DNA of 64,000 nt from Candidatus Limnocylindrales bacterium (GCA_038204565.1 JBBRCU010000011.1:1511-65510); one strand, 5' to 3'. Shown: positions 16,841 to 62,661, counted from the stretch's first letter. Translations and numbers: made by a program. Notes: generated by a model from the sequence alone, not told the origin.

Positions 16841-17128
16841 GAACTCTCCCCGTCCTGGCCCGCCGCAGACGGACCCGTTGCTGAAGATCGACGACGGCTG
16901 GGACCCGGACGAAGCGGGCGGATGAGCCGTCGGAATGCGAACGGCCGAAGGATACGGGCTGCGCCGCGATCGCGAAACTGGCCGACCAACGTAGGCGGTG
17001 CATCCGGGTACCATGGGCGCCGCGCGCGCTCCGATCGTGCCCTGGCGAAAAGGGCTCTCAGTCTCCCTCGACGCTGGTGCAACATCGACCGCATCGTCCC
17101 TCGCCCAGCCGCAACGCGACGGGCCGGG

Positions 17129-23813: not shown

Positions 23814-24998
23814 GTGTTACCCGACGACGTCACTCCGCGGGCTCGAGATCGGACACGTTCCCGGCCGTTCCGGCGAGGCGGCGCGATCGCGATCGTCCTG
23901 CTCGCAGCGGCCGCGATCGCGATCATCGGCGTCATGTCCCGCGCTTCCGGGCGGGCGATCGTGGCCCCATCCCCACCGCCCGGATCCGTGGCCGCCGGCT
24001 CGTCGAACCCGGCGCCGCCGGCGGACCACGGTTACCTCGGGTCGCTGGCCGAGCTGCGCGACCGGGCCGCCCGCGCGGCTGCCGGACAGGCCCCCGAGGC
24101 TGCCGCCGTGAAGGATCTGCTCGACTGGTCCAGGGGAGCCGTGGACGGCCAGCCCAACCCATCCGAACCCCTCCGGATCGACGGCACCACGGGGCCGTTC
24201 GTCGACGACAGCGCGTCAGCCTACGGCCTCGCCCTCGCCTGGGCTGTCAGCGGCGATCCGCGCGATGCCCTGGCCGCCCGGCGCTACGTGATGGCCTGGG
24301 TGGCCCAGACAAAGACGCTGCTCGGCGCCTGTCCGTCGGATGGAGACTGCCAGACGTCGCTCATCGTGAGCCGGGCAGCCCCCGGGTTCGTGTTCGCCGT
24401 CGACCTCCTCGGGCCGTCGGGCGTCCTGAGTGCCGCCGACGACAGCGAGTTCCGCGACTGGCTCCGAACCGTGATCCTGCCCGCGGCCTCCGAACGAACC
24501 AACAACTGGGGCGACGCCGGCGTATTCCTGCGGGTCGTCGGGTTCGATTTCCTCGGCGACACCGCCGGGTTCGGTCGGGCGGTCGACGCCTGGCGGGCCC
24601 AGCTCGACCTCATCGCGTCCGACGGCCACATTCCCGAGGAGGTCCGGCGCGGCTCGGCCGGCCTGTCGTATACCCAGGAGGCACTGATGTACAAGGTCGC
24701 GGTGGCCAGGATCGCCGAGCGCCGCGGCATTGACCTGTGGTCGTACGTCGGGGCGGGCGGCGGAACCGTGCGGAAGGCAGTCGACCTCGCCGCCCGCTAC
24801 GAACAGGATCCGACCGGCTGGCCCTGGGCCCAGGGAGTCGATGTCCCGGCGCCTGCGCCGCTCTGGGAGCTCGTCTATGAGCACTGGCCCGAGTCGACGT
24901 TTGCGGTCGTCCTTGCTGCCGGCCGCCCATTCGGCTCGGCCGGCCATTCGGCCGTGCGCTGGACCACCCTCACCAACGGCATCGCCTTCGGGTCCTGA
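23814..24998 (+). CDS. Alginate-lyase-family protein (third, more divergent paralog), membrane-anchored/secreted
   Basis: GTG start, N-terminal TM (AIAIVLLAAAAIAIIGV), then a helical repeat region with SERTNNWGDAGVFLRVVGFDFLGD. This matches the NNWG...LGD motif of the other two lyase-like genes. Confidence 0.65.
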   Translation: MLPDDVTPRARDRTRSRPFRRGGAIAIVLLAAAAIAIIGVMSRASGRAIVAPSPPPGSVAAGSSNPAPPADHGYLGSLAELRDRAARAAAGQAPEAAAVKDLLDWSRGAVDGQPNPSEPLRIDGTTGPFVDDSASAYGLALAWAVSGDPRDALAARRYVMAWVAQTKTLLGACPSDGDCQTSLIVSRAAPGFVFAVDLLGPSGVLSAADDSEFRDWLRTVILPAASERTNNWGDAGVFLRVVGFDFLGDTAGFGRAVDAWRAQLDLIASDGHIPEEVRRGSAGLSYTQEALMYKVAVARIAERRGIDLWSYVGAGGGTVRKAVDLAARYEQDPTGWPWAQGVDVPAPAPLWELVYEHWPESTFAVVLAAGRPFGSAGHSAVRWTTLTNGIAFGS

Positions 24999-25686: not shown

Positions 25687-28600
25687 ATGCCGATTGCCCA
25701 CCGCCTGCCCAGATCACGAGGCACGGCCTCGTCGGGCCGCCCGCGCGGCCTAGCCCGGCCGCTGATCGCAACCGTCGCCGCCACGCTGACCGCCGCCGCC
25801 CTCGGTCTGGCAATGGTCTTCAGCGGGATCGCCAGCGCCTCGACCCCGGTCACGGTCGGCTACCGCGACTTCGGCTACGGCGGGGCGCTCGCGTCCCGGG
25901 CCACATCGGATCCGGAGCAGTCGAAGCTCTGGTACAACGACGGCGCCTGGTGGGCCGGCCTCTTCGTGTCCTCGGGCAAGGGTTCGGGCGGCTCGCACTT
26001 CGACATCTTCAAGTTCAATCCGGTCAACCACAGCTGGGTGGACACGACCCGTCAGATCGACATCCGCGACCTGTCGCATGCCGACTACCTCTGGGACGGC
26101 GCCCACAACAAGCTGTACGTCGCCTCGTCGAAGAGCATCTGCACGGCCGCAATCGCTCCGCCAAGCCAACCCTGCAACGACTCCATCCGGGTCTATCGCT
26201 ACACGTACAACTCGGCTGCTTCGACGCTCGCGACGAAGTACACACTCGACAGCGGCTTCCCGAAGGTCCTCGCCGGCGGTCAGTACAACGGCGGCAACTT
26301 CACCGGCGGCGGCTCCAACGCCGTGACGATCGCCAAGGATTCGGTCGGTGGCCTGTGGGTCGCCTATACCCGGGACGACCCGACGACCGGCGCGCCACCG
26401 AGCCCGCATTTCAACTCGACCGTCTACCTCGCAGCGAGCTCGGACGACGGCCTGACCTGGTCGGCCCAAGCCAAATTCGCCGGTGCCAGCGTCGGCCAGC
26501 TCGACCAGGACAACACCGCCTCGATCGTCGCCTTCGGCGGCACAAATGTCGGCCTGTACTGGACCGACAAGCATGCGACCGGTGCCTCCAGCGCGTTCTT
26601 CGCGACCCACACCGACGGCGATCCGTTCGGCACCTGGTCCGGAGCCGAGACGGTCATCACCGGCACGAATGCCGCCGAGAATCAGGTCAACCTCAAAGCG
26701 GACTCGGCCGGCAAGGTCTACGCGATGATCAAGACCGGCGTGTCGGACCAGGAGAAGCTGTTCGATCGCTCGACGAGTGGCACGTGGACGAGCCACGTCG
26801 TCTCAAAGGTCGCCGACGGCAACACCCGAGCCCAGGTCGTCCTCGACGAGGACCTCGGCCTCGCCTATGTCTTCTCGTCGAGCGGATCGACGACGGCCGG
26901 GGCGATCTACGTGAAGTCCGCGCCGCTGTCGACGCTCGCATTCCCGACCGGGAAGGGCGCCGCGTTCATCCAGAGCGCAACAGACCACGCCATCGATGAC
27001 ATCAGCCTGACCAAGCAGGTCGTCACGTCCACGACCAACCTCGTCGCCGAGGTCAGCGATCGGTCGACCTTGTGGTTCCTCCACGGCGAGTTGAACCTGG
27101 CCGCGGCGGACACTACCCCGCCCGTCGGGACCGTCACGATCAACAACGGCGATGCCGCGACGACCCTCGCGGCCGTCACGCTCGCGGTGCCGGCGACCGA
27201 CGCCGGCCTCGGCGTCAACCTCGTCCGCGTGGTTAATACCACCGGCCATGTCGACGGCAGCGGGATGCTGGACGGAGCGGGGGCCGCGAGCTCCAGCTGG
27301 ACCGCCACCCTCCCGTGGACCGTGTCCGGTGGCGACGGCACGAAGACCGTCTGGGTCCAGTTCCAGGACGGCGCCGGCAATTGGTCCGCCCCCGTCAGCG
27401 ACACCATCATCCTCGACTCGACCGGGCCCGTCGGCACGGTCACGATCAACAACGGCGACGCGGCCTCCGGCGACTCCGCCGTGACCCTGGACGTCACGGC
27501 AACCGATGCCGGTGTCGGGGTCGTCAGCAACGTCCGGATCGCAAACGATCCGGCGACGAGCGGCGGCCTCCTCAGCGACGCGTCGGCGGTGACCTCGGCC
27601 TACGCGACGTCCAAGCCCTGGAACCTGGCACCGGGCCCCGACGGGGCGCGCACGGTCTACGTCCAGTGGGAGGATGCGGTCGGGAACTGGTCGGGCGTGT
27701 CGAACGACACGATCACCCTCGCGGACGTCGTCAAGCCGGTTGGTCACGTCGCCATCAACGGTGGCTCCGTCGGGATCCACTCCCTGTCGGTCACCCTGTC
27801 ATTCCCACTCACGAGTATGGACGTCACCGAGGTCCAGATCTCGAACAGCCCCACGATGGCGGGCGCGACGTTCCGGCCGTTCGCCGCGTCGATCTCCTGG
27901 ACACTCCCGGGTCTGCTGACCAACTACAGCGTCAAGGCGGTCTACGTCGTCTTCAAGGACGGGGCCGGCAACATCAGCGACCCGATCGCCCCCTCGTACA
28001 GCGCCTCCGCCACGGCCAGGGTCGACCTGACCAAGCCGGTCATGCACAGCCCGATCACGCCGCGGTTCTATGCGCCGACGAACCACGTCGGCAGCACCGT
28101 CCCGCTTCGGCTCGGTTGGCCGGTCGCCAGCGACACGGTCACGGGCGTCGGTAGCTATCGGGTCCTGGCGTCCCGTGACGGCCATGCCTACACGGTGCTC
28201 GGCGCACCGACGGTCAACGCCCTGAACACCCTCGTCTACCCAGGCCACACGTATCGTTTCCGGGTGTATGCGGTCGACCGGGCAGGCAACACCAGCGCGG
28301 CGGTCTACACGCCGACGATGCGCGTCCTGGCCTACCAGGATTCGAGCCGGTCCATCCGCTATTCAAGCGGCTGGCATGCCAGCTCGTCCATCGTGTACTA
28401 CGGCGGGACGGCTCGCTGGGCGACCGTCCACGGCGCCAGTGCGAGCCTGACCTTCATCGGACGAAGCGTGGCCTGGACGTCGCTCGTGGCGACGACCCGT
28501 GGCTCAGCCAATGTCTACGTCGACGGCCGCTTCATTGCGACCGTCAACCTCAACACGGCAACCACCTCGGTCCGCCGGATCGTGTTCGCAAGGACGTGGT

Positions 28601-28692
28601 CGACCGCCGGGACCCACACGATCCGCATCGTGGTGCTCGGAACGGCCGGCCACCCGCGCGTCGACGTGGACGACTTGCTCGTCCTCCGGTGA
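25687..28692 (+). CDS. Large secreted protein: Asp-box beta-propeller-like N-domain + 3 Ig-like repeats + Fn3-like + C-terminal beta-sandwich
   Basis: GGAGGA RBS and a signal peptide (...AALGLAMVFSGIASAS). The N-domain carries SKLWYNDGAWWAGLF and a perfect Asp-box SSDDGLTW. Three repeats of about 102 aa start with PVGTVTINNGDA. The C-terminus is homologous to the 8436-10475 C-terminus. Confidence 0.8.
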   Translation: MPIAHRLPRSRGTASSGRPRGLARPLIATVAATLTAAALGLAMVFSGIASASTPVTVGYRDFGYGGALASRATSDPEQSKLWYNDGAWWAGLFVSSGKGSGGSHFDIFKFNPVNHSWVDTTRQIDIRDLSHADYLWDGAHNKLYVASSKSICTAAIAPPSQPCNDSIRVYRYTYNSAASTLATKYTLDSGFPKVLAGGQYNGGNFTGGGSNAVTIAKDSVGGLWVAYTRDDPTTGAPPSPHFNSTVYLAASSDDGLTWSAQAKFAGASVGQLDQDNTASIVAFGGTNVGLYWTDKHATGASSAFFATHTDGDPFGTWSGAETVITGTNAAENQVNLKADSAGKVYAMIKTGVSDQEKLFDRSTSGTWTSHVVSKVADGNTRAQVVLDEDLGLAYVFSSSGSTTAGAIYVKSAPLSTLAFPTGKGAAFIQSATDHAIDDISLTKQVVTSTTNLVAEVSDRSTLWFLHGELNLAAADTTPPVGTVTINNGDAATTLAAVTLAVPATDAGLGVNLVRVVNTTGHVDGSGMLDGAGAASSSWTATLPWTVSGGDGTKTVWVQFQDGAGNWSAPVSDTIILDSTGPVGTVTINNGDAASGDSAVTLDVTATDAGVGVVSNVRIANDPATSGGLLSDASAVTSAYATSKPWNLAPGPDGARTVYVQWEDAVGNWSGVSNDTITLADVVKPVGHVAINGGSVGIHSLSVTLSFPLTSMDVTEVQISNSPTMAGATFRPFAASISWTLPGLLTNYSVKAVYVVFKDGAGNISDPIAPSYSASATARVDLTKPVMHSPITPRFYAPTNHVGSTVPLRLGWPVASDTVTGVGSYRVLASRDGHAYTVLGAPTVNALNTLVYPGHTYRFRVYAVDRAGNTSAAVYTPTMRVLAYQDSSRSIRYSSGWHASSSIVYYGGTARWATVHGASASLTFIGRSVAWTSLVATTRGSANVYVDGRFIATVNLNTATTSVRRIVFARTWSTAGTHTIRIVVLGTAGHPRVDVDDLLVLR
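27121..28035 (+). repeat. Three tandem coding repeats of about 300-309 nt (Ig-like domains, PxGxVxINxG ... DxAGNxS)
   Basis: Repeat starts lie at 27121, 27427 and 27736 (PVGTVTINNGDAATT / PVGTVTINNGDAASG / PVGHVAINGGSVG). Each ends in a ...QFQDGAGNWS / ...WEDAVGNWS / ...FKDGAGNIS type motif. Confidence 0.8.
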
Positions 28693-28838: not shown

Positions 28839-30854
28839 ATGTGGTCGGTCCATCCACGATGTGAGGTCTTTCGGTTGTCGCGTCGCACGCTGGTCCTGAC
28901 GGCCCTGGTCGCCGCGCTTTCTCTGGCGGTCCTTGGCATTTGGCTAGAGACGAAGCCCGGAGGGCTGCCGGTCAGCGCGTTGCCGAGTGCGAGCGGCCCG
29001 GCGAGCTCGCCCACGCCAAGCCCGACCGTGCCCCCGCTGGCCGCCACGGCGACCTATCCGGATGGCCCGTTCGGTTCGCCACTCACTCACGCCCCGACGG
29101 AGGGCCAGGCCCAGGCCAAGCTCTGGCGCAACGACGGAATCTGGTGGGCGACGATGGTCGACCCGGCAAGTCAGCAGCTCCGGATCGCGCGCCTTGACTG
29201 GTCGACGCAGCGCTGGATCGACACGGGCACCCTGGTCGATGGGCGCATCCAGGTCAAGGCCGACGTCGTGTGGGACGGAACCCACCTCCTGATCGTGACC
29301 GCCGGGGCCAAACCGACAGCCGGCCAGGCGGCGAGACTGAGCCGCTTCCACTACGACGCTGGCGCGCAGCGGTTCGCCATGGATCCCGACTTCCCGATCA
29401 CCGTCGTGGCGACGGGGATCGAGGATGCAGCCCTCGCCCGCGATTCAAAGGGAACCCTGTGGTTGAGCTACCGGGTCGGCGGCGTGCTGGTCGTCCGCCA
29501 CACCCTCGCCAACGACGTCCTCTGGTCGCCAGGCAGCGTCCTCGCCGTTGACGGCGTCGTCGGCGCCATCAGGTCATCGGCCCTCGAGAGCGACGGGACG
29601 CGGATCGCGGTCGTCTGGAACCGGCTCGACGACTCGACGCTGCGGGTCGCCTTCCACGCCGACGGCGCGCCGGACACCGCCTGGACGCTGGCCTCGACCG
29701 CGGTCGACGGACTGGGCAAGGCGCCCGGTGGCCTGTCCGTGAGGAGCGTCCCCGGCGCCACCGGCAATCGCCTGCTCGTCGCCTTCGAAACGACGCCGAA
29801 CGCGGTGCCCAAGGTGAATCCCCTCGACGCCGGCGCACTGGTCATGGTCCTCGATCCGGACGGAACCTGGTCGAAGGTGCAGCTCGGCCGGGTCCAGGAC
29901 CACCTGACCGCGCCGATCCTCGCGATCGATCGACAGCATGGCCTCGTGTACGCGATCGCCGCCACGACGGTGACCGGACAGATCACCTACAAGTGGTCGC
30001 CCGCGGCGAACATCGCCTTCGAGTCGGGCCGGGGCACAGAGCTGATCGCGACCGCCAGCGATCTCGCGATCCGCAATCCCGCAACGACCAGCCAGGACAT
30101 CGACAGCACGGCCGGGTTGGTTGTCCTCGCGGCTGATGACGGGACCGGGCGGTACCTCCACGGCGTCCTTTCGACGGGTGTCGCCCCGCCGACCGTCAGC
30201 CCGACATCGTCCCCGTCGCCCGGTTCGTCGGCCCCTCCGCCGCCTGTCGGCCCGCCCGTCGTGAACGTGCTGATCAACGACACGTTCGACCCGTGGCCGG
30301 TCGGGCTGCACTCGCCGGCCGGCTGGGCCATCACGTCCCAGGGCAACGGCGTCGGTCAGCTCCTGATCGCCGGCGTTCCGTCGCCGACGAACCACAGTCT
30401 CGAGCTTGTCCAGACGTCGGTCGTGGGTGCAGTGCGCTCATGCAAGTCGTTCGCTCCGACCGCTGACGGCGTGCTGTTGGTCAACGCCCTCGTTCGGATC
30501 AGCGCGATCGGCACGTCCGACATCGAGATCGCCGCGGTCCGTGGCCCGGGCGGGGAGACGGCGTCGCTGCGCGTCACCCGGCATGGTCTGCTGGCATACT
30601 TCAATGGCACCGCCAAGATCACCACGACCGCCCTCGTGCGGCGCGGGACCTGGTACCGGGTGGCGATCGTGGTCCGCTTCCGGACCCACACGTTCGACTG
30701 GTCACTGGCGACGGCCGGCGGGCAGGGCATCGCCCACGCGAATGGGGCTCGCTGGCGCGATTCGACCGTCGCGGCCGTGGACTCGGTCTGCGCCCAGACC
30801 CCGCAGACGCGAGGCGTCGCGATCTTCCTCGATACCGTCACGGTCCGACACTGA
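28839..30854 (+). CDS. Secreted/anchored protein: paralogous propeller-like N-domain + Pro/Ser linker + unassigned C-terminal beta domain
   Basis: N-terminal TM (TLVLTALVAALSLAVLGIW). AKLWRNDGIWWATMV and WDGTHLLIVTAG align with 25687-28692 and 37147-40029. A PS-rich linker (PPTVSPTSSPSPGSSAPPPP) follows. The start may be TTG 28875 (GAGG upstream) rather than 28839. Confidence 0.75.
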   Translation: MWSVHPRCEVFRLSRRTLVLTALVAALSLAVLGIWLETKPGGLPVSALPSASGPASSPTPSPTVPPLAATATYPDGPFGSPLTHAPTEGQAQAKLWRNDGIWWATMVDPASQQLRIARLDWSTQRWIDTGTLVDGRIQVKADVVWDGTHLLIVTAGAKPTAGQAARLSRFHYDAGAQRFAMDPDFPITVVATGIEDAALARDSKGTLWLSYRVGGVLVVRHTLANDVLWSPGSVLAVDGVVGAIRSSALESDGTRIAVVWNRLDDSTLRVAFHADGAPDTAWTLASTAVDGLGKAPGGLSVRSVPGATGNRLLVAFETTPNAVPKVNPLDAGALVMVLDPDGTWSKVQLGRVQDHLTAPILAIDRQHGLVYAIAATTVTGQITYKWSPAANIAFESGRGTELIATASDLAIRNPATTSQDIDSTAGLVVLAADDGTGRYLHGVLSTGVAPPTVSPTSSPSPGSSAPPPPVGPPVVNVLINDTFDPWPVGLHSPAGWAITSQGNGVGQLLIAGVPSPTNHSLELVQTSVVGAVRSCKSFAPTADGVLLVNALVRISAIGTSDIEIAAVRGPGGETASLRVTRHGLLAYFNGTAKITTTALVRRGTWYRVAIVVRFRTHTFDWSLATAGGQGIAHANGARWRDSTVAAVDSVCAQTPQTRGVAIFLDTVTVRH

Positions 30855-30855
30855 C

Positions 30856-31833
30856 ATGCGAATCATGGTCACCGGCAGCGCCGGGTTCATCGGCTCCCAT
30901 CTCGCGGAGCGCCTTGTCGCCGACGGACACGACGTCGTCGGCATCGACGCGTTCGTCGACTACTACCCGCGCGCCCTCAAGGAGGCGAACATCGCGGGCC
31001 TGCTCGGCGGCCCGCGCTTCACGCTCGTCGAGGCCGACCTCCGACGCGACGAGCTCCTCCCGTCGCTCGAGGGAATCGAGGCCGTGGTCCACGCGGCGGC
31101 GATGGCCGGTCTCCCCCGGAGCTGGACGGAGTTCCAGGACTACATGGACTGCAACATCCTCGCCACCCAGCGGCTGCTCGAAGCCGCCAGGACCACCGGG
31201 ATCCGTCGCTTCGTCCATATCTCCACCTCATCGGTCTACGGCCGGGACGCGGTCGGCGACGAGCGGCTGCCGACTCGCCCGATCTCTCCGTACGGGGTGA
31301 CCAAGCTCGCCGCCGAGAACCTGGTCCTCGCCTTCGTCGACAGCTTCGACTTCCCGGCGACGATCCTCCGCTACTTCTCGGTGTTCGGCCCGCGCCAGCG
31401 ACCGGACATGGCCTATCACATCTTCAGCGAGGCGCTCCTCGACGGACGGCCGATCATGGTCTTCGGCGACGGCGAGCAGACGCGGAGCAACACCTTCGTC
31501 GCTGACATCGTGGGGGCCACGATCGCAGCAATCGAGGGCGGCGCCCAGGGCGAGATCTACAACCTGGGCGGCGGCGAGGTGATCACCCTCAACGACGCCA
31601 TCCGGACGATCGGCGAGGCCCTTGGCGTGGAGCCCGAGATTCAGCACGGGCCGGACCGCCTGGGCGACCAGCGCCACACTCAGGCCGACACCACGAAGGC
31701 GCGCCTGGCATTCGGGTTCCGCCCGGCAATCAGCCCGGCGGCGGGCCTCTGCGCCCAGGCCGAATGGCATCGATCCCTGCGAGCAGGCGGCCCGGCAGAG
31801 CCCACCCACGCCTCGCCCGCGGTCGATCGCTAG
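30856..31833 (+). CDS. NAD-dependent sugar-nucleotide epimerase/dehydratase (SDR family)
   Basis: Rossmann motif VTGSAGFIGSHL and catalytic SPYGVTKLAAE (YxxxK). The start is 1 nt after the upstream stop. Confidence 0.9.
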   Translation: MRIMVTGSAGFIGSHLAERLVADGHDVVGIDAFVDYYPRALKEANIAGLLGGPRFTLVEADLRRDELLPSLEGIEAVVHAAAMAGLPRSWTEFQDYMDCNILATQRLLEAARTTGIRRFVHISTSSVYGRDAVGDERLPTRPISPYGVTKLAAENLVLAFVDSFDFPATILRYFSVFGPRQRPDMAYHIFSEALLDGRPIMVFGDGEQTRSNTFVADIVGATIAAIEGGAQGEIYNLGGGEVITLNDAIRTIGEALGVEPEIQHGPDRLGDQRHTQADTTKARLAFGFRPAISPAAGLCAQAEWHRSLRAGGPAEPTHASPAVDR

Positions 31834-31899: not shown

Positions 31900-33120
31900 T
31901 CAGCTGCCGGTCGCCGCGATCCGGCTGAAGGACGCATCATCGAGCCACGTCGTCGAGTCGTAGCGGCCGAGGTCGACCTCGAGGTACGCATTCTGATCGC
32001 TCGCCAGGACGGTGCTGTCGATCGTCAGCACCTGCCACTCCGGACCGATCGTGTACAGCCGCGTGGCGTACGTCACGCCGTCGGCCGAGGCGAGCCGGAT
32101 GCGGACCTCACGGCTCGTTGCAGCGCGCGCAGAGATCGTCACGACATAATGACCGCCGGTCTCGATGACGAGGCCTCCCTGGCGAACCGCAATCGAGGCG
32201 CGCTCCACGCCGGCCGTCGTGATGTCGACCCGAGCCGATGCCGCGCCGCTCGCGTGCTCGGCCAGATCCTGCGACATCACCGCGGAACTCCCGCTCGCGA
32301 CGACGAGCTCCCAGGGGCCGCCCGTCCCGCTCTCGAAGCCGGGGTTGACGATCCCGGTCGTGGACGAAGCCAGCGGGGTCGGCGTCGGCCCTCCGTCCGG
32401 GGTCCGGCTGGGGGTCGGCGAACTGGTTGGCGAATTGGACGGCGACGAGCTCGGACCCGACGAGCTCGGACCCGACGAGCCCGGCGGTCCGCCCGATGGT
32501 GTGACGTTGCCCGCCAGCAGGTCGCGCAGTTCTGCGTCGATTGCCGGCAGGTCGGCGAGGATCTTGACGACGGCCTTGGCCGCCGACTGATAGGCCGCAG
32601 CATTCCGCAGGGAGTTGTCGAGCGCGTCCGAGATCGCCACATGCACCGAGGTGTAGAGCGCGGTCAGGCGCGCCCCGACCGGGGCCGAGGCCCGGAACTC
32701 CAGGAGCCGAGCCGGTGCTGTCGTCGACGCCACGACCTCCGCGTTGAGGCTGCGGAAGATGGCAGCGACGTTGGCTGGCGCGAAGATCGAGCTCGCGAGC
32801 TCCGCCTTGAGGGCCGCGCCGTCGTCCTCAAGCCGGCGGTTGACGACGAGACACGCCTGGATGGCGCTCGGGTCGAAGCCGGGATCCGACGGAGGAACCA
32901 CGACCGGGGTTCGGGTCGCCGTCGGCAGCGACCCGGCGGGATCGTGGGTCTGGCCCGCGGCGCCGGTCAGCAGGCCCGCTCCGAGGACCGCGACGATCGC
33001 CACGACCAGAACCCCCGCGATGAGCTCGGGTCCGATGGATCGGGTCCGGCGCGGCTCCGGCAGCCCCGGCCGCTGCGGTCCGCCGGCGACGGCGTCATCT
33101 TGCGGAGACGGTCCGCTCAC
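31900..33120 (-). CDS. Membrane-anchored protein with helical domain, Ser/Pro linker and C-terminal CBM4/9-like carbohydrate-binding module
   Basis: N-terminal TM (LIAGVLVVAIVAVLGAGLL), linker PPGSSGPSSSGPSSSPSNSPTSSPTPS, and C-terminus NPGFESGTGGPWELV...LEVDLG typical of CBM_4_9. GTG start overlaps the upstream stop (GTGA). Confidence 0.65.
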   Translation of the reverse strand: MSGPSPQDDAVAGGPQRPGLPEPRRTRSIGPELIAGVLVVAIVAVLGAGLLTGAAGQTHDPAGSLPTATRTPVVVPPSDPGFDPSAIQACLVVNRRLEDDGAALKAELASSIFAPANVAAIFRSLNAEVVASTTAPARLLEFRASAPVGARLTALYTSVHVAISDALDNSLRNAAAYQSAAKAVVKILADLPAIDAELRDLLAGNVTPSGGPPGSSGPSSSGPSSSPSNSPTSSPTPSRTPDGGPTPTPLASSTTGIVNPGFESGTGGPWELVVASGSSAVMSQDLAEHASGAASARVDITTAGVERASIAVRQGGLVIETGGHYVVTISARAATSREVRIRLASADGVTYATRLYTIGPEWQVLTIDSTVLASDQNAYLEVDLGRYDSTTWLDDASFSRIAATGS

Positions 33121-33965
33121 GGGTGGGCGGCGGCGATCGGGACGGACCCGGAGAGTTCCATGATTGCATCGTCCACGGGCCGCGCAACCATGCCCGCCAG
33201 CGCCTGGAAGGCGAGGACGAACGTCCGCCCTGAGCCGTCGTCGGCAACGCCGCCCATGACCAGTCGATCGGCGAGCAGATTGGCCTCGATCCCGGCGAGA
33301 GGCAGGTCGAGGTCGGCGTGATTGGTGGCGACGTCGATGGGGCCGATGATCCGGAGCCGATCGTCGGTCCTCGCGATGAGGTAGCGCATGCCCGCGACGA
33401 GGCTCTTTTCCGAGCCGCGGACGTAAACGCCGATGGCCAGCATCGTCATCTCGGAACCATCGCCTTGGCCGGGCCCCGCGCGACCGGACGACAGGACCCT
33501 CGGACGCTGGGCCCCGACCGCCGACAGCCGGTCCGGGCCGGCATCCTGGCCGGTCGCGTTGCTGTCCATCACGGGAACACCGACGCCGCGGTCGGCGGCT
33601 GGCAACGGACTACCGCGGACGATCGCTGCCGACGGCCTGGCTCCCGATGCTCCGCGGGGCGCACCTGGAGCGCCTTCGATACTCGCGGCAAACGGCCGGC
33701 GTCGCAGCCGCAGGTCGAAGCCGCACGCCCGGCAGGCGGTCTCGAAGCCGGACGTCGGCCCCGAGCAGGCCGGACAGGTGGCTGGAGGTGCGAGCAGAAC
33801 CAGGGCCAGGGCGATCGGCCCGAGGCACACGCCGAACACCAGCCAGACCGCCGGATTGCGGTGGCGCCGTGCTGCCAGCCAGGCCGCGCTTGGCCCGAAG
33901 GCGATCGCGGCGACGGCGAGAACCGGTGCAAAGGCGAGAATCGCGTCACCCAATGTCAGGGCCAT
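33117..33965 (-). CDS. Membrane protein with CxxC...CxxC zinc-ribbon and a C-terminal soluble domain
   Basis: Two TM segments are followed by CPACSGPTSGFETACRACGF. The C-terminal 120 aa (MTMLAIGVYVRGSEKSLVAGMRYLIARTDDRLRIIGPIDV...) are unassigned. Confidence 0.55.
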   Translation of the reverse strand: MALTLGDAILAFAPVLAVAAIAFGPSAAWLAARRHRNPAVWLVFGVCLGPIALALVLLAPPATCPACSGPTSGFETACRACGFDLRLRRRPFAASIEGAPGAPRGASGARPSAAIVRGSPLPAADRGVGVPVMDSNATGQDAGPDRLSAVGAQRPRVLSSGRAGPGQGDGSEMTMLAIGVYVRGSEKSLVAGMRYLIARTDDRLRIIGPIDVATNHADLDLPLAGIEANLLADRLVMGGVADDGSGRTFVLAFQALAGMVARPVDDAIMELSGSVPIAAAHP

Positions 33966-34121
33966 CCCCAGGCAATCGGACCATTCACGGGCCCCATGAT
34001 CGCATCGCAATCGACCCGCTGGATGGGAGCGCGGTGCGCGCCGTCACCGCGAATGCCGGGCCCGCCGACCCTCCTGAGCGTGAATCGACCTTCACAACGA
34101 TTTTGAAACCCCCCGCGGCCC

Positions 34122-34325: not shown

Positions 34326-35774
34326 GTGCGAGTATCGGTCGTCGGGTTGGGGTATGTGGGCCTCGTGACGTCGGCATGTCTGGCGGAGCAGGGCCACGAT
34401 GTCGTCGGCATCGAGGTGTCGGCTCAGCGGATCGAGGCTCTTCTCGAAGGTCGGATGCCCTTCCACGAGCCCGGCCTGGATGTGATGGTGGCCGCGAATC
34501 GCGCGGCGGGGCGGCTGTCCTTCACCGCCGACCCGGCCGCCGTGGCGGATGCCGAGGTGATCTTCGTGGCCGTCGGCACCCATGACGGCAATGGCGGGTG
34601 GCAGACCGGGACGATCCAGGCATGCCTGAACGAGATCGTCCCGCGCCTCGCAGACGAGGCGGTTCTCGTCGTTCGGTCAACGCTTCCGCCGTGGTTCCTG
34701 GCCCGCCTCGCGGGCATCGTCGGGAGGATGCGGGAGGAGGCGGGTCGCGGCGAGGTGCCGGTGATCCTGAACCCCGAGTTCACCAAGGAAGGGACCGCGG
34801 TCAAGGACTTCCTGGAGCCTGAGCGCATCGTCCTAGGGATCGCCCACGATGTCGACGCCCGCGGAGCGGATCGGCTGCGTCGGCTCTATCGAGGGTCGGA
34901 CGCCCCGATCCTCGAGATGAGCGCGACCGACGCCTCGCTCAGCAAGCTCGGCGCAAACCTCTTCCTCGCCACGAAGATCAGCTTTGCCAACGAGCTCGCC
35001 CAGCTGTGCGATCAGTACGGTGCCAACATCGAGCAGGTCGTCGCTGCCATGGCCTACGACTCGCGCATCGGGGGCGGCTTCCTGCGGGCCGGGATCGGGT
35101 TCGGCGGCTCGTGCCTGCCGCACCAGGTCACGATGACCGTCTCGATGGCGGCCGAGAGCGGCCAGCCAACCCCGCTCTTCGCGGCGGTCGACACCGTGAA
35201 TCATCGGCAGCGAGAGCGGATCGTCGAGCGGCTCGCCGCGCTCCTCGACGGCTCCCTCGCGGGGGCCACGGTCGCCCTCCTCGGCGTCACGTTCAAGCCC
35301 GACACGGACGACCTCCGCGAGGCCCCGTCGCTCGACATCGCGGCGCGGCTCATCGAGGAAGGCGCCACCGTCGTGGCGTTCGATCCGATGACGTCCGCTC
35401 TGGAGCGGTTCGGCGAGCTGGTCCCGGGCGTCCAGCTCGCGGCGAGCGCCGACGAGGCGCTGACCCGCGCCGACGCCGCGGCGCTCGTGACCGAATGGCC
35501 GGTCTTCCGCCAGCTCGATTGGCGTCGCGCCGCCGGACTCATGCGCCGGCCGATCCTTGTCGACGGGCGGAATGCCCTGTCCGTCATCGAGATGGTGGAC
35601 GCCGGGTTCGCCTACTCGTCGTTCGGCCGTGGGACCTGGGGAGTCGAGGCGATCGATGAGATCGCAGCCGTGATCGCGGAGTCGCCGGCGGTGCCGGAGG
35701 CGGACGCGATCGCGAGCGACCCGATCGTGGCACGACCGGTCTCGAACGCGCTCGACATGGCCCGGAGCGAGTGA
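34326..35774 (+). CDS. ugd: UDP-glucose 6-dehydrogenase
   Basis: VVGLGYVGLVTSACLAEQGHDV (NAD-binding) and catalytic GFGGSCLPHQV. GTG 34326 follows AAGGGGGA. Confidence 0.9.
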   Translation: MRVSVVGLGYVGLVTSACLAEQGHDVVGIEVSAQRIEALLEGRMPFHEPGLDVMVAANRAAGRLSFTADPAAVADAEVIFVAVGTHDGNGGWQTGTIQACLNEIVPRLADEAVLVVRSTLPPWFLARLAGIVGRMREEAGRGEVPVILNPEFTKEGTAVKDFLEPERIVLGIAHDVDARGADRLRRLYRGSDAPILEMSATDASLSKLGANLFLATKISFANELAQLCDQYGANIEQVVAAMAYDSRIGGGFLRAGIGFGGSCLPHQVTMTVSMAAESGQPTPLFAAVDTVNHRQRERIVERLAALLDGSLAGATVALLGVTFKPDTDDLREAPSLDIAARLIEEGATVVAFDPMTSALERFGELVPGVQLAASADEALTRADAAALVTEWPVFRQLDWRRAAGLMRRPILVDGRNALSVIEMVDAGFAYSSFGRGTWGVEAIDEIAAVIAESPAVPEADAIASDPIVARPVSNALDMARSE

Positions 35775-36505
35775 TGGAGCTCGCCGACTCACCCTCCTCC
35801 GACTTCTCCCCGTCCAGTCGCCGTCGGGCGGGCCTGCTGCGGCAGCTCGCCGCGGGTCTTCTACCGGTCCTCGGAGCGGTCGCCGGCATCGGGATCGGGC
35901 AGCTGTCCGGCCAGTCCGGCGGCGTACCGGCGGTCGGGCTGCTGGTCGTGGCCGTCGGCGCGCTGTCCCTGGTGGCAGCCCGGGCCGTCGCTCGACCGTC
36001 GCCCGATCTCCTCCGGGTCAGCGGCCGCGATGCGCTCCGCAATGAGCTCGACCGGGCCCGCCGTCATCGACGGACCTTCGCCCTCGCCCGCCTCCGCCCG
36101 ATCGGCGGGTCTGCCGCCGCGGGCGCCATGGCAGGTGCTTCGGGCGGGATCGCGGCCGAGACGCTCCGGCTGATCGGGGCGTCCCTGCGCATCACGGATC
36201 GAGCCTGGCTCGATGACGACGATGTCGTCCTCCTGCTCCCTGAGGCTGACCGGGCGACTGCGGACGCCCTCGCCGACCGTCTTCGCCAGGCAGCCCCGGA
36301 CCGATTCACCGCAGACGTCGCGATCGCGGTCTTTCCCGACGACGGGCTGACGAGCGGCGCTCTGCTCGAGGCCCTGGACCGGGAGATGCATGGCGACCAG
36401 CTGCCGTCCCCGCTGCCTCGAACGGCGGCTGCGGCAACGGGCCTCGACGCGTCGCCCGTCGGGATTATCGGATCGGATGTTCGCGTCGAGTCCGGGGTGG
36501 GCTGA
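35771..36505 (+). CDS. Two-TM membrane protein with degenerate GGDEF-like domain (I-site RxxD retained, GGDEF replaced)
   Basis: LRITDRAWLDDDDVVLLLPEADRATADALADRLR aligns with the canonical GGDEF core RxxD-5aa-GGEEF-vvimPdt...A..iAerIR. The start overlaps the ugd stop, and the stop lies 4 nt before the priming transferase start. Confidence 0.5.
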   Translation: MMELADSPSSDFSPSSRRRAGLLRQLAAGLLPVLGAVAGIGIGQLSGQSGGVPAVGLLVVAVGALSLVAARAVARPSPDLLRVSGRDALRNELDRARRHRRTFALARLRPIGGSAAAGAMAGASGGIAAETLRLIGASLRITDRAWLDDDDVVLLLPEADRATADALADRLRQAAPDRFTADVAIAVFPDDGLTSGALLEALDREMHGDQLPSPLPRTAAAATGLDASPVGIIGSDVRVESGVG

Positions 36506-36509
36506 CCCG

Positions 36510-37121
36510 ATGATGGTCGTCGGACCCGGCTTCCTCCGGATCAAGCGGATCATCGACGTGACGCTCTGCATCCTCATCGCCCCCGCGGTCCTGGTCGTGC
36601 TCGGCGTGTGCGCGATCGCGATACGCCTCGACTCGCCCGGACCCGTGTTGTTCACGCAGCAGCGGACCGGGCGCCACGGGAACCGGTTCCCGATGTACAA
36701 GTTTCGCACGATGGTTCGCAACGCCGAGGAACTGAAGCCCTCCCTTCAGCACCTGAACATCCTGCCGCCACCGGACTTCAAGATTCCCGACGACCCGCGG
36801 ATCACCCGGGTCGGTCGGCTGTTGCGCAAGACGAGCCTGGATGAGCTGCCCCAGATCCTGAACGTCCTTCGCGGCGAAATGTCCCTTGTCGGGCCGCGCC
36901 CGACCTCGTTTCACGCAAGCACGTACAGTCTGTGGCACTCGCAGCGCCTCGAGGCCACGCCTGGCATCACTGGCTTGTGGCAGGTCGGTGGCAGGAACGA
37001 GCTCACGTTCGATGAGCGGAATCGGCTCGACGCCGAATACGTGCGGAACATGTCGCTTCGCCAGGATTTCAGGATTATGCTGTTGACAGTCGGATCCATC
37101 ATCAAGCGATCCGGCCACTGA
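36510..37121 (+). CDS. Undecaprenyl-phosphate sugar phosphotransferase (small bacterial sugar transferase, EpsL/WbaP-C type)
   Basis: [13 protein letters not shown]..., PMYKFRTM and [21 protein letters not shown]. Confidence 0.9.
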
Positions 37122-37146: not shown

Positions 37147-40029
37147 ATGACGACAACATGGCGGGCGGCCGCCATCGGCCTGGTGTTGACGTCGGTCACC
37201 CTTGTTGGCCCGGTGGCGGCGCAAGCGGCGGGCCGAGCCGCCCCCGCTGCATCGCCGCCAATCGTCTCGGCGATGCCCATCGCCGCTGCGCCGCCGCCGA
37301 CCGTCGTCACCCTCGACGCCGCGGCCCCGTTCGGGACCAAGGACCAGTCGTTCAGCGGGGCGAGCACCGCGCCCTCGGGCTCGAAGCCGGAGAGCAAGCT
37401 CTGGTTCAACGACGGGATCTGGTGGGCGTCGATGTGGAGCACGACGGCGGGCAGGTTCCACATCTTCCGGCTGAGTGACTCGGGCGACGTCTGGCAGGAC
37501 ACCGGGACGACGATCGACAGTCGAGGGAGCACCCGCGGCGACGCACTGTGGGATGGCAGCCATCTGTACGTCGCCTCCCACGATGTCGCCAGCGACTCCT
37601 CCCACAACACGATCAATCGGCCGGCCAGGCTGTATCGTTTCAGCTACAACAGCGGCACCCAGACCTACAGCCTCGACGGCGGCTTCCCGGCCACGATCAC
37701 GACGGTCGCCGTCGAGACGCTCGTCATCGACAAGGACTCGACGGGGACACTCTGGGCGACCTGGACGCAGGCCAAGAAGGTGGTGGTCTCCCACACGGTC
37801 GGCGATGACCTCACGTGGGGAAGCCCGTTCACCCCGGCAATCACCGGCGACACGAGCCTCAGCAGCGACGACGTCTCGTCCGTGATCGCCTTCGGCGGCA
37901 ACCGGATCGGCGTGATGTGGAGCAATCAGGCCAACTCCCATATGTACTTCAGCAGCCATCGCGACGGCGATCCGGACACGACGTGGTCGTCGAGCGAGGC
38001 GGCAACCTCCGGTTCGGGCAGCGCGGACGACCACATCAACCTGAAGACCGATTCGAGTGGTCGGGTCTATGCCGCTGTCAAATCGTCGTTCACGTCGAGT
38101 TCCGCCGTCCTGACCCACCTCCTCGTGCGGGCCGCGGGTGGCGGCTGGTCGGACCATCCATTCGGGACGGTGGCCAACAGCCAGACGCGTCCGATCGTCC
38201 TCGTCGACGAGCCGAACGCGACGCTCCACGTATTCGTGACGGGTGCATACCCCGGCAGGAGCAGTGGCCAGAGCGGGGGCACGATCTACGAGAAGACAGC
38301 GCCATTCTCGACGATGGACTTTCCGACTGGAGCGGGGACGCCTGTCATCCAGGACCCGTCCAGCGCGGACATGAACAACGCCAGTTCTACCAAGCAGAAT
38401 GTCGGGTCAGCGAGCGGCATCGTCGTCCTGGCCACGAACGACTCCACGGGGTTCTACTGGCACGCGAACGAGACGCTGGGCGGCGCCACCACCAGCCCGA
38501 CCGCGAACTTCAGCGGCACTCCGACCACTGGCAGCGCGCCGTTGACGGTGGCCTTCACGGACTCGTCCACCGGCGGACCGACCTCATGGGCCTGGGACTT
38601 CGGCGATCCCGGATCGGGCGTCGCCAACACCTCCACCAGCCGGAATCCAAGCCACGTCTACGCCGCGGACGGGACCTATACGATCAAGCTCACGGCGACC
38701 AACGGATCCGGCTCGGACACGAAGACCCGAACCGGATATGTCACGGTCGCCACCGCGCCGACGGCCGACTTCAGCGGCAGCCCGACGACAGGCAATGCCG
38801 GCCTGAACGTCTCGTTCACGGACTCGTCCGCCGGCGGACCGACCTCATGGGCCTGGGACTTCGGCGATCCCGGATCGGGCGTCGCCAACACCTCCACCAG
38901 CCAGAACCCGAGTCACGCGTATGCCGCCGATGGGACGTACACGGTCAAGCTGACCGCGACGAACACCAACGGCTCGACCTCGAAGACGCGGACCAACTAC
39001 ATCACCGTCGGCACCAAGCCGGTGGCCGATTTCAGCGGTTCGCCGACCAGCGGCAACGGCCCGCTGACCGTCAATTTCAGCGATGCGTCGACCGGCAGCC
39101 CGACATCATGGGCCTGGGACTTCGGCGATCCGGGATCGGGCGCGGGCAACACCTCGGCGGCCCCGAGCCCATCACACCTCTATTCGGCTGACGGGACCTA
39201 CACCGTGAAGCTGACCGTGTCGAACACGAGCGGCACGGACACCAGGACGCGGACCGGCTACATCATGGTCGGCACGGCTCCGACGGCGGCATTCACCGCC
39301 ACCCCGACGAGCGGATCCGCCCCTCTCACCGTGAGTTTCACGGACACATCGACGGGCAGCCCGACGTCATGGTCGTGGGACTTCGGTGATCCGGGATCCG
39401 GCTCGGCCAATGGGTCGACCGCCCGGAACCCGAGCCACATTTACAACGGTGGCGGGACCTACACGGTCAAGCTGACCGCGACCAATGCGAGCGGCTCCAA
39501 CACCGCCACCCAGACGAGCCTGATCAGCGTGACCTCGTCGGCCGTGACACTGACCCTCAACCCGATCGCCGACTCGTACGTGAGCTCGAGCAACCTCACC
39601 GGCAACTACGGGACGCAGACCACGATGAAGGTCCGTGAAGGCGACGGCTCGAGCAGCAACCCCAACTACCGGACCTATCTCAAGTTCGATGTCTCGGGTG
39701 TCTCCGGCACCGTCAGTGCCGTGACGCTCCGTCTGTTCGTGACGGACAGGTCAGCGAACCTGGAGTCCATCTATGTCGTCGGCAACAGCAGTTGGACCGA
39801 GACCGCGATCACGTATTCGAACGCGCCGGCGATCAACGGTAGCGCCGTGGGTACGACGAGCGGGGCTCCGCTCGGGGCATACGTCTCGATCACCCTCGTT
39901 CCCTCGAGTGTCAGCCCCGGCTCCTCGCCGCTGACCCTGGCGATCGAGAGCTCGGCCACGGACAGCTTCGTCGTCGCCAGTCGCGAAGACCCGACGAACA
40001 AGCCGCAGCTGATCGTTACGTTCCAGTAG
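37147..40029 (+). CDS. Secreted protein: paralogous propeller-like N-domain + 4 PKD domains + C-terminal DNRLRE/CBM-like domain
   Basis: Signal peptide (AIGLVLTSVTLVGPVAAQA). SKLWFNDGIWWASMW and WDGSHLYVASH match the two paralogs. Four 87-aa PKD repeats carry WAWDFGD. The C-terminus is ADSYVSSSNLTGNYG...YLKFDVSGV...SSWTETAITYSNAP. Confidence 0.85.
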   Translation: MTTTWRAAAIGLVLTSVTLVGPVAAQAAGRAAPAASPPIVSAMPIAAAPPPTVVTLDAAAPFGTKDQSFSGASTAPSGSKPESKLWFNDGIWWASMWSTTAGRFHIFRLSDSGDVWQDTGTTIDSRGSTRGDALWDGSHLYVASHDVASDSSHNTINRPARLYRFSYNSGTQTYSLDGGFPATITTVAVETLVIDKDSTGTLWATWTQAKKVVVSHTVGDDLTWGSPFTPAITGDTSLSSDDVSSVIAFGGNRIGVMWSNQANSHMYFSSHRDGDPDTTWSSSEAATSGSGSADDHINLKTDSSGRVYAAVKSSFTSSSAVLTHLLVRAAGGGWSDHPFGTVANSQTRPIVLVDEPNATLHVFVTGAYPGRSSGQSGGTIYEKTAPFSTMDFPTGAGTPVIQDPSSADMNNASSTKQNVGSASGIVVLATNDSTGFYWHANETLGGATTSPTANFSGTPTTGSAPLTVAFTDSSTGGPTSWAWDFGDPGSGVANTSTSRNPSHVYAADGTYTIKLTATNGSGSDTKTRTGYVTVATAPTADFSGSPTTGNAGLNVSFTDSSAGGPTSWAWDFGDPGSGVANTSTSQNPSHAYAADGTYTVKLTATNTNGSTSKTRTNYITVGTKPVADFSGSPTSGNGPLTVNFSDASTGSPTSWAWDFGDPGSGAGNTSAAPSPSHLYSADGTYTVKLTVSNTSGTDTRTRTGYIMVGTAPTAAFTATPTSGSAPLTVSFTDTSTGSPTSWSWDFGDPGSGSANGSTARNPSHIYNGGGTYTVKLTATNASGSNTATQTSLISVTSSAVTLTLNPIADSYVSSSNLTGNYGTQTTMKVREGDGSSSNPNYRTYLKFDVSGVSGTVSAVTLRLFVTDRSANLESIYVVGNSSWTETAITYSNAPAINGSAVGTTSGAPLGAYVSITLVPSSVSPGSSPLTLAIESSATDSFVVASREDPTNKPQLIVTFQ
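38497..39540 (+). repeat. Four tandem 261-nt coding repeats (PKD domains)
   Basis: The period is exactly 261 nt (starts at 38497, 38758, 39019, 39280). Repeats 1 and 2 share a 71-nt identical run (38571-38641 vs 38832-38902). Confidence 0.9.
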
Positions 40030-46316: not shown

Positions 46317-46387
46317 CCAGTCGTGGCCAGTGCACCGACGACCGGACGGCACGGGTGGGGACGACCTGCGATCCGGCGGTCCCCGGC

Positions 46388-47152
46388 GTGAGGATCCGCG
46401 TCCGGCTGTTTGCGATCCAGCGCGAGCTCGCGGGAACCCGTGAGGTGCCGCTCGAGCTGGGCCCGGGCGCCACGGTCGACGACGCCTGGGCGGCCGTCGC
46501 CGCGCGGTTCCCGGTCCTCGGCCCGGGTCGAGCCTCGGTTCGGTTCGCCCGCAACGGGGACTACGCGGAGCCGACGACGACCCTGGCCGACGGAGACGAA
46601 GTGGCCTTCATCCCGCCGGTCAGTGGCGGCTCCGGCGAAGCTGCGGCCGTGGCGCCGGGGCGGCGGCGCATCCTCGAGCTGCGCGACGCCCCGTTCAGCT
46701 CGACCATCCTCGCCGATCTCGAGGCCCGCCTCGCCACCGATGCCGATGGCGCGGTCGTCGGGTTCGTCGGCAGGACGCGGCTCTCGCCCGGGACGCCGGC
46801 GCCGGGCCAGGAGGGAGAGGCGTCCCGCCACGCCGGCCGATCGGTCGAGTCGCTCGGCTACGAGGCGCACGAGACGATGGCGATCCGGGTCCTCGACACG
46901 ATCGCAGCAGAGATCGAGGAGCGGTTCGGTGTCGAACGCCTTGCAATCGTCCATCGCACGGGCGAGGTCCCCCTGGGCGAGGCGAGCATCGTCGTGGTGG
47001 CCGTGTCGCCACATCGCGACGCGGCCTTCCAGGCGGCGCGCTACGCGATCGACGAGACGAAGGCCCGCGCCCCGATCTGGAAGGCTGAGCGGTTCGCCGA
47101 CGGCCATGTCTGGATCGGCGCGCCCGCCCGAAGCGGACCCGAGCCCGGCTGA
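46388..47152 (+). CDS. Fused molybdopterin synthase MoaD-MoaE (MoaX-like)
   Basis: The N-terminal 80 aa form a ThiS/MoaD fold ending in IPPVSGG. A linker is followed by MoaE motifs (VGFVGRTR, GYEAHETMA, VAVSPHRDAAF, APIWKAE). Confidence 0.85.
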   Translation: MRIRVRLFAIQRELAGTREVPLELGPGATVDDAWAAVAARFPVLGPGRASVRFARNGDYAEPTTTLADGDEVAFIPPVSGGSGEAAAVAPGRRRILELRDAPFSSTILADLEARLATDADGAVVGFVGRTRLSPGTPAPGQEGEASRHAGRSVESLGYEAHETMAIRVLDTIAAEIEERFGVERLAIVHRTGEVPLGEASIVVVAVSPHRDAAFQAARYAIDETKARAPIWKAERFADGHVWIGAPARSGPEPG

Positions 47153-54050: not shown

Positions 54051-54104
54051 CCGCCGACGCGAGATACTTGAGTCATCCGCTCCGTTACGGGGCAGGGAGG
54101 GACG

Positions 54105-62441: not shown

Positions 62442-62661
62442 TGGTTCGCCGGGACGGACGTGGGTCGGGTGACGGTCGAGCCTCGCGTCCGGATGTCCGC
62501 AGTTTGCACTTCGCCCGTCCCGCTCGCATCTCGTCCGACCAAGGCCGCACCGGTCCGGATCGCTGCGCCGAACCGCGCCGCGACGGACGGCCGCGCCGCC
62601 GCGCCCGTCCCACCGTGCGACCCACCATTGACAAGTGGTGTGCCGAGGCGACACTTCCCGC

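Follow-up and report, generated by a model that had tools for sequence, protein, structure and literature searches.

Post-translational control of exopolysaccharide (EPS) production by cyclic di-GMP (c-di-GMP) is well understood for the synthase-dependent systems that make cellulose, alginate, Pel and PNAG. The present work deals with a 64-kb stretch of DNA (64,000 nucleotides) from a Candidatus Limnocylindrales bacterium (GCA_038204565.1 JBBRCU010000011.1:1511-65510), which is referred to below as the window and from whose first letter all coordinates are counted, and in particular with a gene for a putative membrane-anchored, degenerate GGDEF protein that lies between ugd and the gene for a priming transferase. 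The closest described systems employ GGDEF domains of this degenerate kind. The inner-membrane protein PelD of Pseudomonas aeruginosa has a degenerate GGDEF domain, binds c-di-GMP by means of R367, D370 and R402, the last of which is needed for binding, and gates EPS production post-translationally (PMC8461298). YdaK of Bacillus subtilis, encoded in ydaJKLMN, is anchored by transmembrane (TM) helices and its sole cytoplasmic domain is a degenerate GGDEF domain with the motif SDERI; it is needed for EPS in a manner dependent upon its RxxD, which precedes the motif by five residues, and a putative secondary RxxR (R157-R160) is also present (PMC5422440). In PssE of Listeria monocytogenes (pssA-E), the degenerate motif reads DKDDA with an RxxD five residues upstream; this protein, which is essential for EPS, binds two c-di-GMP with a Kd of 0.79 uM, and the Pss machinery has been likened to the c-di-GMP-activated synthase systems for cellulose, alginate and Pel (PMC4125290). 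The degenerate GGDEF-like protein BcsE of enterobacterial cellulose secretion keeps the inhibitory site (I-site) of GGDEF domains, binds c-di-GMP and boosts secretion (PMC8461298). In Myxococcus xanthus, the small signalling protein EpsW, as EpsW~P, activates the initiating phosphoglycosyl transferase (PGT) EpsZ of a Wzx/Wzy pathway post-translationally (PMC12802240), and in Caulobacter crescentus c-di-GMP directly activates HfsJ, at an early glycosyltransferase step that the holdfast polysaccharide adhesin requires for its synthesis (PMC9980756). A literature search for c-di-GMP receptors acting on a priming glycosyltransferase found no such description.

Based upon the results presented here, we see about an even chance that the protein in the window is an I-site-type c-di-GMP receptor that controls the PGT made together with it. 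The features that it has in common with degenerate-GGDEF I-site receptors are an RxxD, an arginine in helix alpha-3, an RxxR in helix alpha-0 and a location in an EPS cluster. An earlier note on this DNA had pointed out the RxxD; the alpha-3 arginine and the secondary RxxR site are further conserved features.

Fold, lost active site and I-site of the candidate receptor

The open reading frame (ORF) of the candidate receptor extends from 35771 (GTG) or 35774 (ATG) to 36505 on the + strand and encodes 243 aa from the ATG or 244 aa from the alternative GTG. A protein in public collections (P0001) is identical to the 243-aa ATG form, and residues are numbered here according to this form (numbers in the GTG form are one higher). 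The preceding gene, ugd (34326-35774, +), encodes a nucleotide-sugar dehydrogenase of the UDP-glucose/GDP-mannose type, specifically of the UDP-glucose 6-dehydrogenase kind, as indicated by matches to the N-terminal (UDPG_MGDP_dh_N), central and C-terminal Pfam domains (E values of 6e-42, 3e-28 and 5e-29) and to the NCBIfam model TIGR03026 (E 2.6e-112); the gene call in locus L009 is 482 aa long. The ugd stop codon TGA (35772-35774) overlaps the receptor start, as either GTGA or TGATG, and the receptor stop TGA (36503-36505) is followed after 4 nt by the transferase ATG at 36510. These junctions agree with those described in the earlier note, and the string LRITD-RAWLD-DDDVV-LLLPEADRATADALADRLR, upon which its argument was built, is found in the receptor translation.

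Searches with the single sequence were nearly silent and a signal was obtained only with profiles. The earlier note had proposed scoring the protein with the Pfam GGDEF model, and this check came out negative: PF00990 did not match the receptor alone, nor did it match any of 24 family members at E<=1. The sole Pfam match of the receptor was to GGDEF_2, with a sub-threshold score of 14.3 bits (14.3-14.6) against a cutoff of 24.5, and a search of the single receptor against PDB by phmmer returned only noise (ribosomal L28e, HAMP). No Pfam model reached its threshold on the family, and the NCBIfam scan gave no match for the window protein. Membership in GGDEF_2 (PF17853), whose members are PucR/CdaR-type regulators, was rejected on account of the score below the 24.5-bit cutoff and the absence of a helix-turn-helix domain. 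Because the Pfam GGDEF model misses the single protein, the assignment of the fold rests upon profiles and structure. A family profile (A1) built from 30 homologues found 3ign as its best match in PDB (E 2.6e-5), and eight of the nine matches were GGDEF proteins. Comparison of the family by hhalign with a genuine GAF-GGDEF cyclase from an Acidobacteria genome gave an E value of 7.5e-8; with the PleD domain alone only the C-terminal half was aligned, at low probability, and for this reason the HMMER alignments and the closer cyclase were preferred. The model obtained with AF2 from the A1 alignment has a mean pLDDT of 79, with blocks above 90 in the domain, and it consists of a long alpha-0 helix followed by a beta-alpha-alpha-beta-beta-alpha-beta-alpha core (E103-110, H113-119, H125-138, E144-148, E151-157, H161-174, E179-188, H195-206). 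The top 50 matches of this model in a Foldseek search of PDB were all GGDEF domains (E values down to 1.2e-6), and they included c-di-GMP I-site complexes (PleD 1w25 and 2wb4, GcbC 5euh, 3ign and DgcB 6tts). Structure prediction, for which the note had named the lack of a GGDEF-like fold as a refutation, thus yielded the fold that it expected, and by predicted fold and profile similarity the receptor can be assigned to the GGDEF superfamily.

The equivalent of the catalytic GG(D/E)EF in this domain is D147-D-D-D-V151 (36212-36226, +), which is read as DDDDV in the hhalign alignment and as DD-DV in that by HMMER, with no Gly-Gly in either case. The claim that the catalytic motif has been replaced is therefore upheld, whereas the replacement does not read exactly DDDVV, as had been stated: the stretch after the RxxD is one residue shorter than the canonical one, and hence the motif equivalent need not be DDDVV. 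This one-residue deletion falls between the RxxD and a conserved Pro and leaves a spacing of 4-5 residues between the RxxD and the motif. When 204 family proteins were aligned to the family hidden Markov model (HMM) by hmmalign and column counts and entropies were computed, the columns equivalent to GGDEF were found to vary (D/E/A, D/G, G/D/R, D/S/A and V/L/I, respectively). The beta-1 strand of the receptor reads FALARLRP and the position of the metal-binding Asp is not conserved, while the segment corresponding to the GTP-binding part (about residues 108-133) is an indel-rich linker of 25-30 residues with an entropy of about 3-3.5 bits. In active cyclases we take the metal- and GTP-binding residues to be those equivalent to PleD D327 (the beta-1 metal-binding Asp), N335 and D344. 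As judged from these sequence features, the receptor domain is catalytically dead, and the earlier description of a GGDEF domain that has lost its active site holds for the motif, the beta-1 Asp and the GTP-binding segment alike.

It is highly improbable that the protein is instead an unorthodox active diguanylate cyclase, or that the ORF is spurious. Some cyclases with altered motifs, e.g. AGDEF, stay active, but this protein lacks the Gly-Gly, a conserved acidic pair, the beta-1 Asp and the GTP-binding helix, by which the active cyclase reading is effectively refuted. A long antisense ORF of 286 aa (35861-36721, -), with a high third-position GC of 0.85, overlaps the gene. Shadow ORFs are common in DNA of 70% GC, and this one is most likely of that kind; it was rejected as the true gene since the + frame has hundreds of homologues, a conserved pattern of motifs and a confidently predicted fold.

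In the alignment of the 204 proteins, only six columns have zero entropy, viz. those of E91, R94, R97, R139, D142 and R169, and five of these six residues map to the primary I-site and the secondary RxxR site; R96 is also kept in 200 of 201 proteins. The primary RxxD is R139-I-T-D142 (36188-36199, +). Three independent alignments, of HMMER with 3ign (RQSD), of hhalign with the GAF-GGDEF cyclase (RAGD) and of the family HMM with PleD (RAID, R359-D362), place RITD upon the RxxD, and in all three the sequence ADRLR sits on the arginine of AERIR. The Arg concerned is R169 (36278-36280, +) in helix alpha-3, the third residue of the primary I-site, which aligns with ERIR in 3ign, PleD and one of the Acidobacteria cyclases (L008). 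R139, D142 and R169 thus correspond to PleD R359, D362 and R390 (the PleD numbering, with R313, R359, D362, GGEEF 368-372 and R390, was verified on the PDB chains). Since these three residues are invariant in 204/204 proteins while the GGDEF-equivalent columns vary, the match to the motif is more than chance, and the retention of the RxxD claimed in the note is well supported. The putative secondary I-site RxxR is part of E91-L-D-R94-A-R96-R97 in helix alpha-0 (36044-36064, +). Its arginines R94 and R97 lie 45 and 42 residues ahead of R139, a spacing identical to that from R157 and R160 to R202 in YdaK, and R94 is equivalent to PleD R313 in a register set by hand from the beta-1 strand, with no tool alignment covering the alpha-0 helix of PleD. 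A structural motif, F187-P-D-D-G-L-T193 (36332-36352, +), belongs to the final strand and helix of the core and is near-invariant in the family. As only I-site-type columns are invariant and the active-site columns are variable, the alignment indicates that selection is largely confined to the allosteric site for c-di-GMP, in both of its halves.

The same residues could serve a pocket for some other anionic ligand (cGAMP, c-di-AMP, (p)ppGpp, UDP-glucuronate, UMP or undecaprenyl phosphate), in which case the protein would report that signal to the transferase. The invariant set of four Arg, one Asp and one Glu is generic for binding of phosphates and bases, enzymes of c-di-GMP metabolism are lacking among the window ORFs and the related loci scanned, and the frequent position of the gene between ugd and an epimerase gene makes a sensor of nucleotide sugars conceivable. 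Further, the PleD entries 9g85 and 9g86 hold c-di-GMP plus ppGpp or pppGpp, and their titles are silent on the site of the alarmone. Against this, the constellation of RxxD, alpha-3 Arg and RxxR, together with its spacing, is that of proven c-di-GMP I-sites, about half of the loci are without ugd, and the literature search turned up no degenerate-GGDEF I-site receptor that binds anything else. We consider a different ligand unlikely, but less so than the other alternatives.

Membrane anchoring, the family and its partner transferase

Two N-terminal TM helices had been reported for the receptor, and the AF2 helices of this region (H14-45 and H52-74 in GTG numbering) and the Kyte-Doolittle hydropathy peaks (residues 21-39 and 51-69) support them and place them at about aa 20-44 and 51-73 (35831-35992, +). 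In the sequence, Arg-rich flanks bound the TM region on both sides. Based upon these flanks and the positive-inside rule, the protein is likely to have an N-in/C-in topology, with its C-terminal domain in the cytoplasm. This anchoring is not common to all relatives. Of the 204 family proteins, 86 have 1-3 TM helices and 118 have none, and the family thus holds both membrane-anchored and soluble forms, the latter making up more than half of it.

The family is large. A word-indexed search retrieved 63 receptor homologues, and when 1.84 billion representative proteins were searched with a profile, 1124 clusters were obtained at E<=1e-10, so that the family comprises about 1,100 clusters at 50% identity. 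The best 150 representatives of the 1124 are all 138-309 aa long, and a fusion of receptor and transferase was found neither among these 150 (<=309 aa) nor in the loci that we studied. Public sources give the members no name or only that of 'hypothetical protein'. A scan of genome contigs recovered one true relative, from a Chloroflexia metagenome-assembled genome (L006), and two ordinary Acidobacteria cyclases (L007 and L008).

The gene directly after the receptor (36510-37121, +) encodes a small monotopic PGT of 203 aa (Bac_transf; Pfam PF02397, E 1.8e-62). The NCBIfam models EPS_sugtrans, WbaP and WcaJ match this protein through their C-terminal catalytic part, and its translation shows a DE dyad and a PRP motif, which we take to be marks of active PGT enzymes. 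The stop/start junction of the two genes suggests that receptor and PGT are made together by coupling. In order to define the neighbours of the family, metagenomes were scanned with a peptide pattern specific to the receptor (an FPDDGLT-type motif), which yielded 64 loci. In all 58 of those whose downstream DNA extends for 200 nt or more, a PGT gene follows directly on the same strand, with its start offset by about -16 to +69 nt; these downstream PGTs are 202-213 aa long and 40-79% identical to that in the window, with an identity of at least 54% in all but one locus. When the receptor cores were clustered, a PGT was present for 37 of the 38 clusters at 80% identity and 26 of the 27 at 60% identity. 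In contrast, only about half of the related loci have ugd ahead of the receptor gene, and the conserved unit is for this reason receptor plus PGT rather than ugd plus receptor. The position between ugd and the priming transferase that was emphasized earlier is therefore correct for the window, and it is the transferase, not ugd, that is the constant partner. The order ugd-receptor-PGT is kept in divergent relatives with two TM helices, including the Chloroflexia copy, which is 36% identical; beside the short soluble relatives the PGT is still directly downstream and the upstream neighbour differs. Across the family the link between receptor and transferase is close to obligate.

This pairing would also be expected if the protein were an accessory subunit that works independently of any nucleotide, either as a scaffold or as a functional stand-in for the additional N-terminal module, part membrane and part cytoplasmic, of large monotopic PGTs such as WbaP, with the invariant Arg and Asp residues making contacts with protein or lipid. 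Besides the near-obligate association with a short transferase and the co-production suggested by the stop/start coupling, it may be noted that the NCBIfam models of PGTs of roughly 450 aa match the transferase by their C-terminal half only and that the Arg-rich alpha-0 helix adjoins the membrane in the forms with two TM helices. However, soluble forms make up the majority of the family, each of the conserved residues has its counterpart in a known ligand site instead of the set being scattered over a surface, and the rest of the domain evolves rapidly (27-57% identity), which argues that a pocket is under selection rather than an extended interface. In view of these observations, we hold a role of this kind to be unlikely and favour that of a c-di-GMP receptor.

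The polysaccharide locus and the proposed c-di-GMP switch

The Wzx/Wzy-type pathway that the note ascribed to this locus is borne out by Pfam matches for Wzy_C (12322-14292, -), a GT2 glycosyltransferase (13920-15167, -), a Wzz/GNVR co-polymerase (15167-17587, -), two GT4 glycosyltransferases (18088-19398 and 19326-20726, both +) and a Wzx flippase (20767-22494, -). Two alginate-lyase-like proteins (11028-12278 and 23814-24998, both +) and a NAD-dependent sugar epimerase/dehydratase (about 30865-31833, +; Pfam Epimerase, E 3e-57) are also encoded here, and their presence together with ugd suggests that the polysaccharide contains uronic acids. In many loci the epimerase gene is again found next to the receptor and transferase genes. 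Just after the transferase is the gene for a secreted protein of 960 aa with four PKD domains and a C-terminal CBM96 (37147-40029, +; PKD_4 E 9e-68, CBM96 E 3.6e-29), which is syntenic in this position in the subgroup with two TM helices.

The recurrence of ugd, the epimerase and the CBM96/PKD proteins in these neighbourhoods bears upon the question of what the protein acts on. It could be a c-di-GMP receptor with a different target (Ugd, the epimerase, the machinery of Wzx, Wzy and the polysaccharide co-polymerase, or the pathway of the secreted protein), a local sink for the nucleotide or an adaptor for a cyclase, the last of which accords with the finding that I-sites can mediate contacts between cyclases and receptors (PMC5422440). 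The one family member without a transferase also adjoins a CBM96 protein. These alternatives seem improbable to us, since the transferase alone keeps its position and strand over all types of neighbourhood, and control of the transferase is the reading that we develop below.

In the mechanism that we propose, the two TM helices would hold the cytoplasmic, catalytically dead GGDEF domain at the inner side of the membrane, and the receptor would form a complex with the transferase. Upon a rise in c-di-GMP, an intercalated dimer of the nucleotide would bind to the primary site formed by R139, D142 and R169 and would probably bridge to the secondary RxxR (R94, R97) of a second receptor molecule; bridging between two molecules is suggested because both sites are conserved. 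The resulting change, possibly a dimerisation, would turn on the transfer of sugar-1-phosphate to undecaprenyl phosphate and so commit the cell to making an EPS of the Wzx/Wzy type that may contain uronic acids. That the effect would be activation is proposed by analogy with PelD, PssE, YdaK and BcsE, and control at the priming step is plausible in view of the precedent of EpsW~P and EpsZ. The priming transferase is also a logical place for a fast switch, as it draws on the shared pool of undecaprenyl phosphate. More tentatively, and at somewhat less than an even chance, the protein may be the founding member of a large family of second-messenger receptor subunits for small monotopic PGTs, in which c-di-GMP bridges the I-sites of two receptors and thereby switches on the step of the Wzx/Wzy pathway that consumes undecaprenyl phosphate.

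A number of observations weigh against this proposal. Apart from the failure of the Pfam GGDEF model to recognise the receptor, neither canonical GGDEF nor EAL genes turned up in Pfam scans of the ORFs in the window, and six-frame ORFs from 458 kb of related loci, when searched with an ad hoc cyclase HMM, likewise gave no canonical GGDEF cyclase, a sample too small to decide the matter either way. Other nucleotide signals do exist in the window, as seen from a TPR protein (60642-62753, -) that carries a domain of the class III adenylate/guanylate cyclases (PF00211, E 3.9e-5) and from the small cNMP-binding protein adjoining it near the window edge (62635-63078, +), a pair for cyclic-mononucleotide signalling. 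The adjacency of the receptor and PGT genes is no proof of interaction. Over the loci L001-L079, the receptors are 27-57% identical to the window protein and the transferases mostly 60-81% identical to that of the window, and for a tight complex it is unusual that one partner should diverge so much faster than the other. Lastly, there is the lone exception to the pairing, P0061 (3867-4364 in L010 and 2002-2499 in L011), which has no adjacent transferase. The genes that flank P0061 encode a 1240-aa protein, a Metallophos protein and a 1050-aa CBM96/RGI-lyase-like protein.

If this wider reading is true, it would provide the first example of a priming transferase gated directly by c-di-GMP, and post-translational control by c-di-GMP would be extended from synthase-dependent systems to lipid-linked polysaccharide pathways. 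The receptor and its small priming transferase provide a concrete two-protein system in which c-di-GMP control of priming can be tested. Since the family is large and unannotated, its definition should also lead to better annotation of many metagenome-assembled genomes from soil, probably of the Chloroflexota.

Several other features of the window and the related loci were recorded. The N-terminal part (about 430 aa) of the PKD/CBM96 protein has no Pfam match and is 52-74% identical across the loci of the subgroup with two TM helices. Two large ORFs, 25687-28692 (+) of 1001 aa and 28839-30854 (+) of 671 aa, are likewise without a Pfam match, and in two related loci (L003 and L005) the epimerase gene is preceded, at the syntenic site, by ORFs of comparable length. 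A CBM_4_9 protein (31900-33120, -) and a membrane protein in which a double zinc-ribbon signature is weakly discernible (33117-34010, -) are encoded in divergent orientation upstream of ugd, and this pair recurs in many related loci. A homologue of MTTB-family methyltransferases (54068-56368, +; E 2.9e-192), a lysine-5,6-aminomutase-like protein (47276-48856, +) and a fused ThiS-MoaE protein (46355-47152, +) appear to belong to ordinary metabolism unrelated to the receptor.

Comparison with known systems

The protein had been described earlier as PelD-like, and this is apt as far as the logic is concerned, viz. a degenerate GGDEF domain with an I-site in an EPS cluster, but it does not make the protein a member of PelD. 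Of the residues that bind c-di-GMP in PelD, R402 has its equivalent in R169. PelD, with its four TM helices and GAF domain, acts within the PelDEFG complex in a pathway of the synthase-dependent type. The receptor shares none of these features; a single helix lies between TM2 and beta-1 and the neighbours are ugd, the Bac_transf PGT, the epimerase and the Wzx/Wzy genes, with no PelE, PelF or PelG. The PelD_GGDEF model found nothing in the window protein and gave weak matches to four of 24 relatives (best E 0.0023). Membership in PelD (PF16963) was rejected because there is no GAF domain, the family proteins have two or no TM helices instead of four, and no pel genes are present.

By analogy, YdaK and PssE would be closer functional counterparts than PelD. 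YdaK resembles the receptor in its TM anchor, in the RxxR located 45/42 residues upstream of the RxxD and in its location in an EPS operon. However, it has four TM helices where the receptor has two, and it acts together with YdaM (GT2) and YdaN, a system of the synthase type. No sequence kinship between the two was detectable beyond the GGDEF superfamily, and the receptor family is shorter, lacks the alpha-1/alpha-2 GTP-binding part and is paired with a PGT. PssE shares with the receptor an acidic motif (DKDDA compared to DDDDV) and the RxxD upstream of it, but it is a firmicute protein and is encoded by the last gene of its operon, not ahead of a priming transferase. BcsE differs from the receptor in that it is soluble, has several domains and works for a cellulose synthase and not for a lipid-linked pathway. 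The control point proposed for the receptor is the same as that of EpsW and EpsZ, where the regulator is of another type and the target is a large monotopic PGT. In the case of HfsJ, c-di-GMP binds to the glycosyltransferase directly and not to a separate degenerate-GGDEF receptor, and the enzyme is not a priming PGT. In relation to all of these systems, what is new here is, as far as can be judged from the alignments, a separate and compact family whose domain has a linker in place of the entire GTP-binding half, and which, in both its soluble and its membrane-anchored forms, has a PGT of the Wzx/Wzy pathway as its constant partner.

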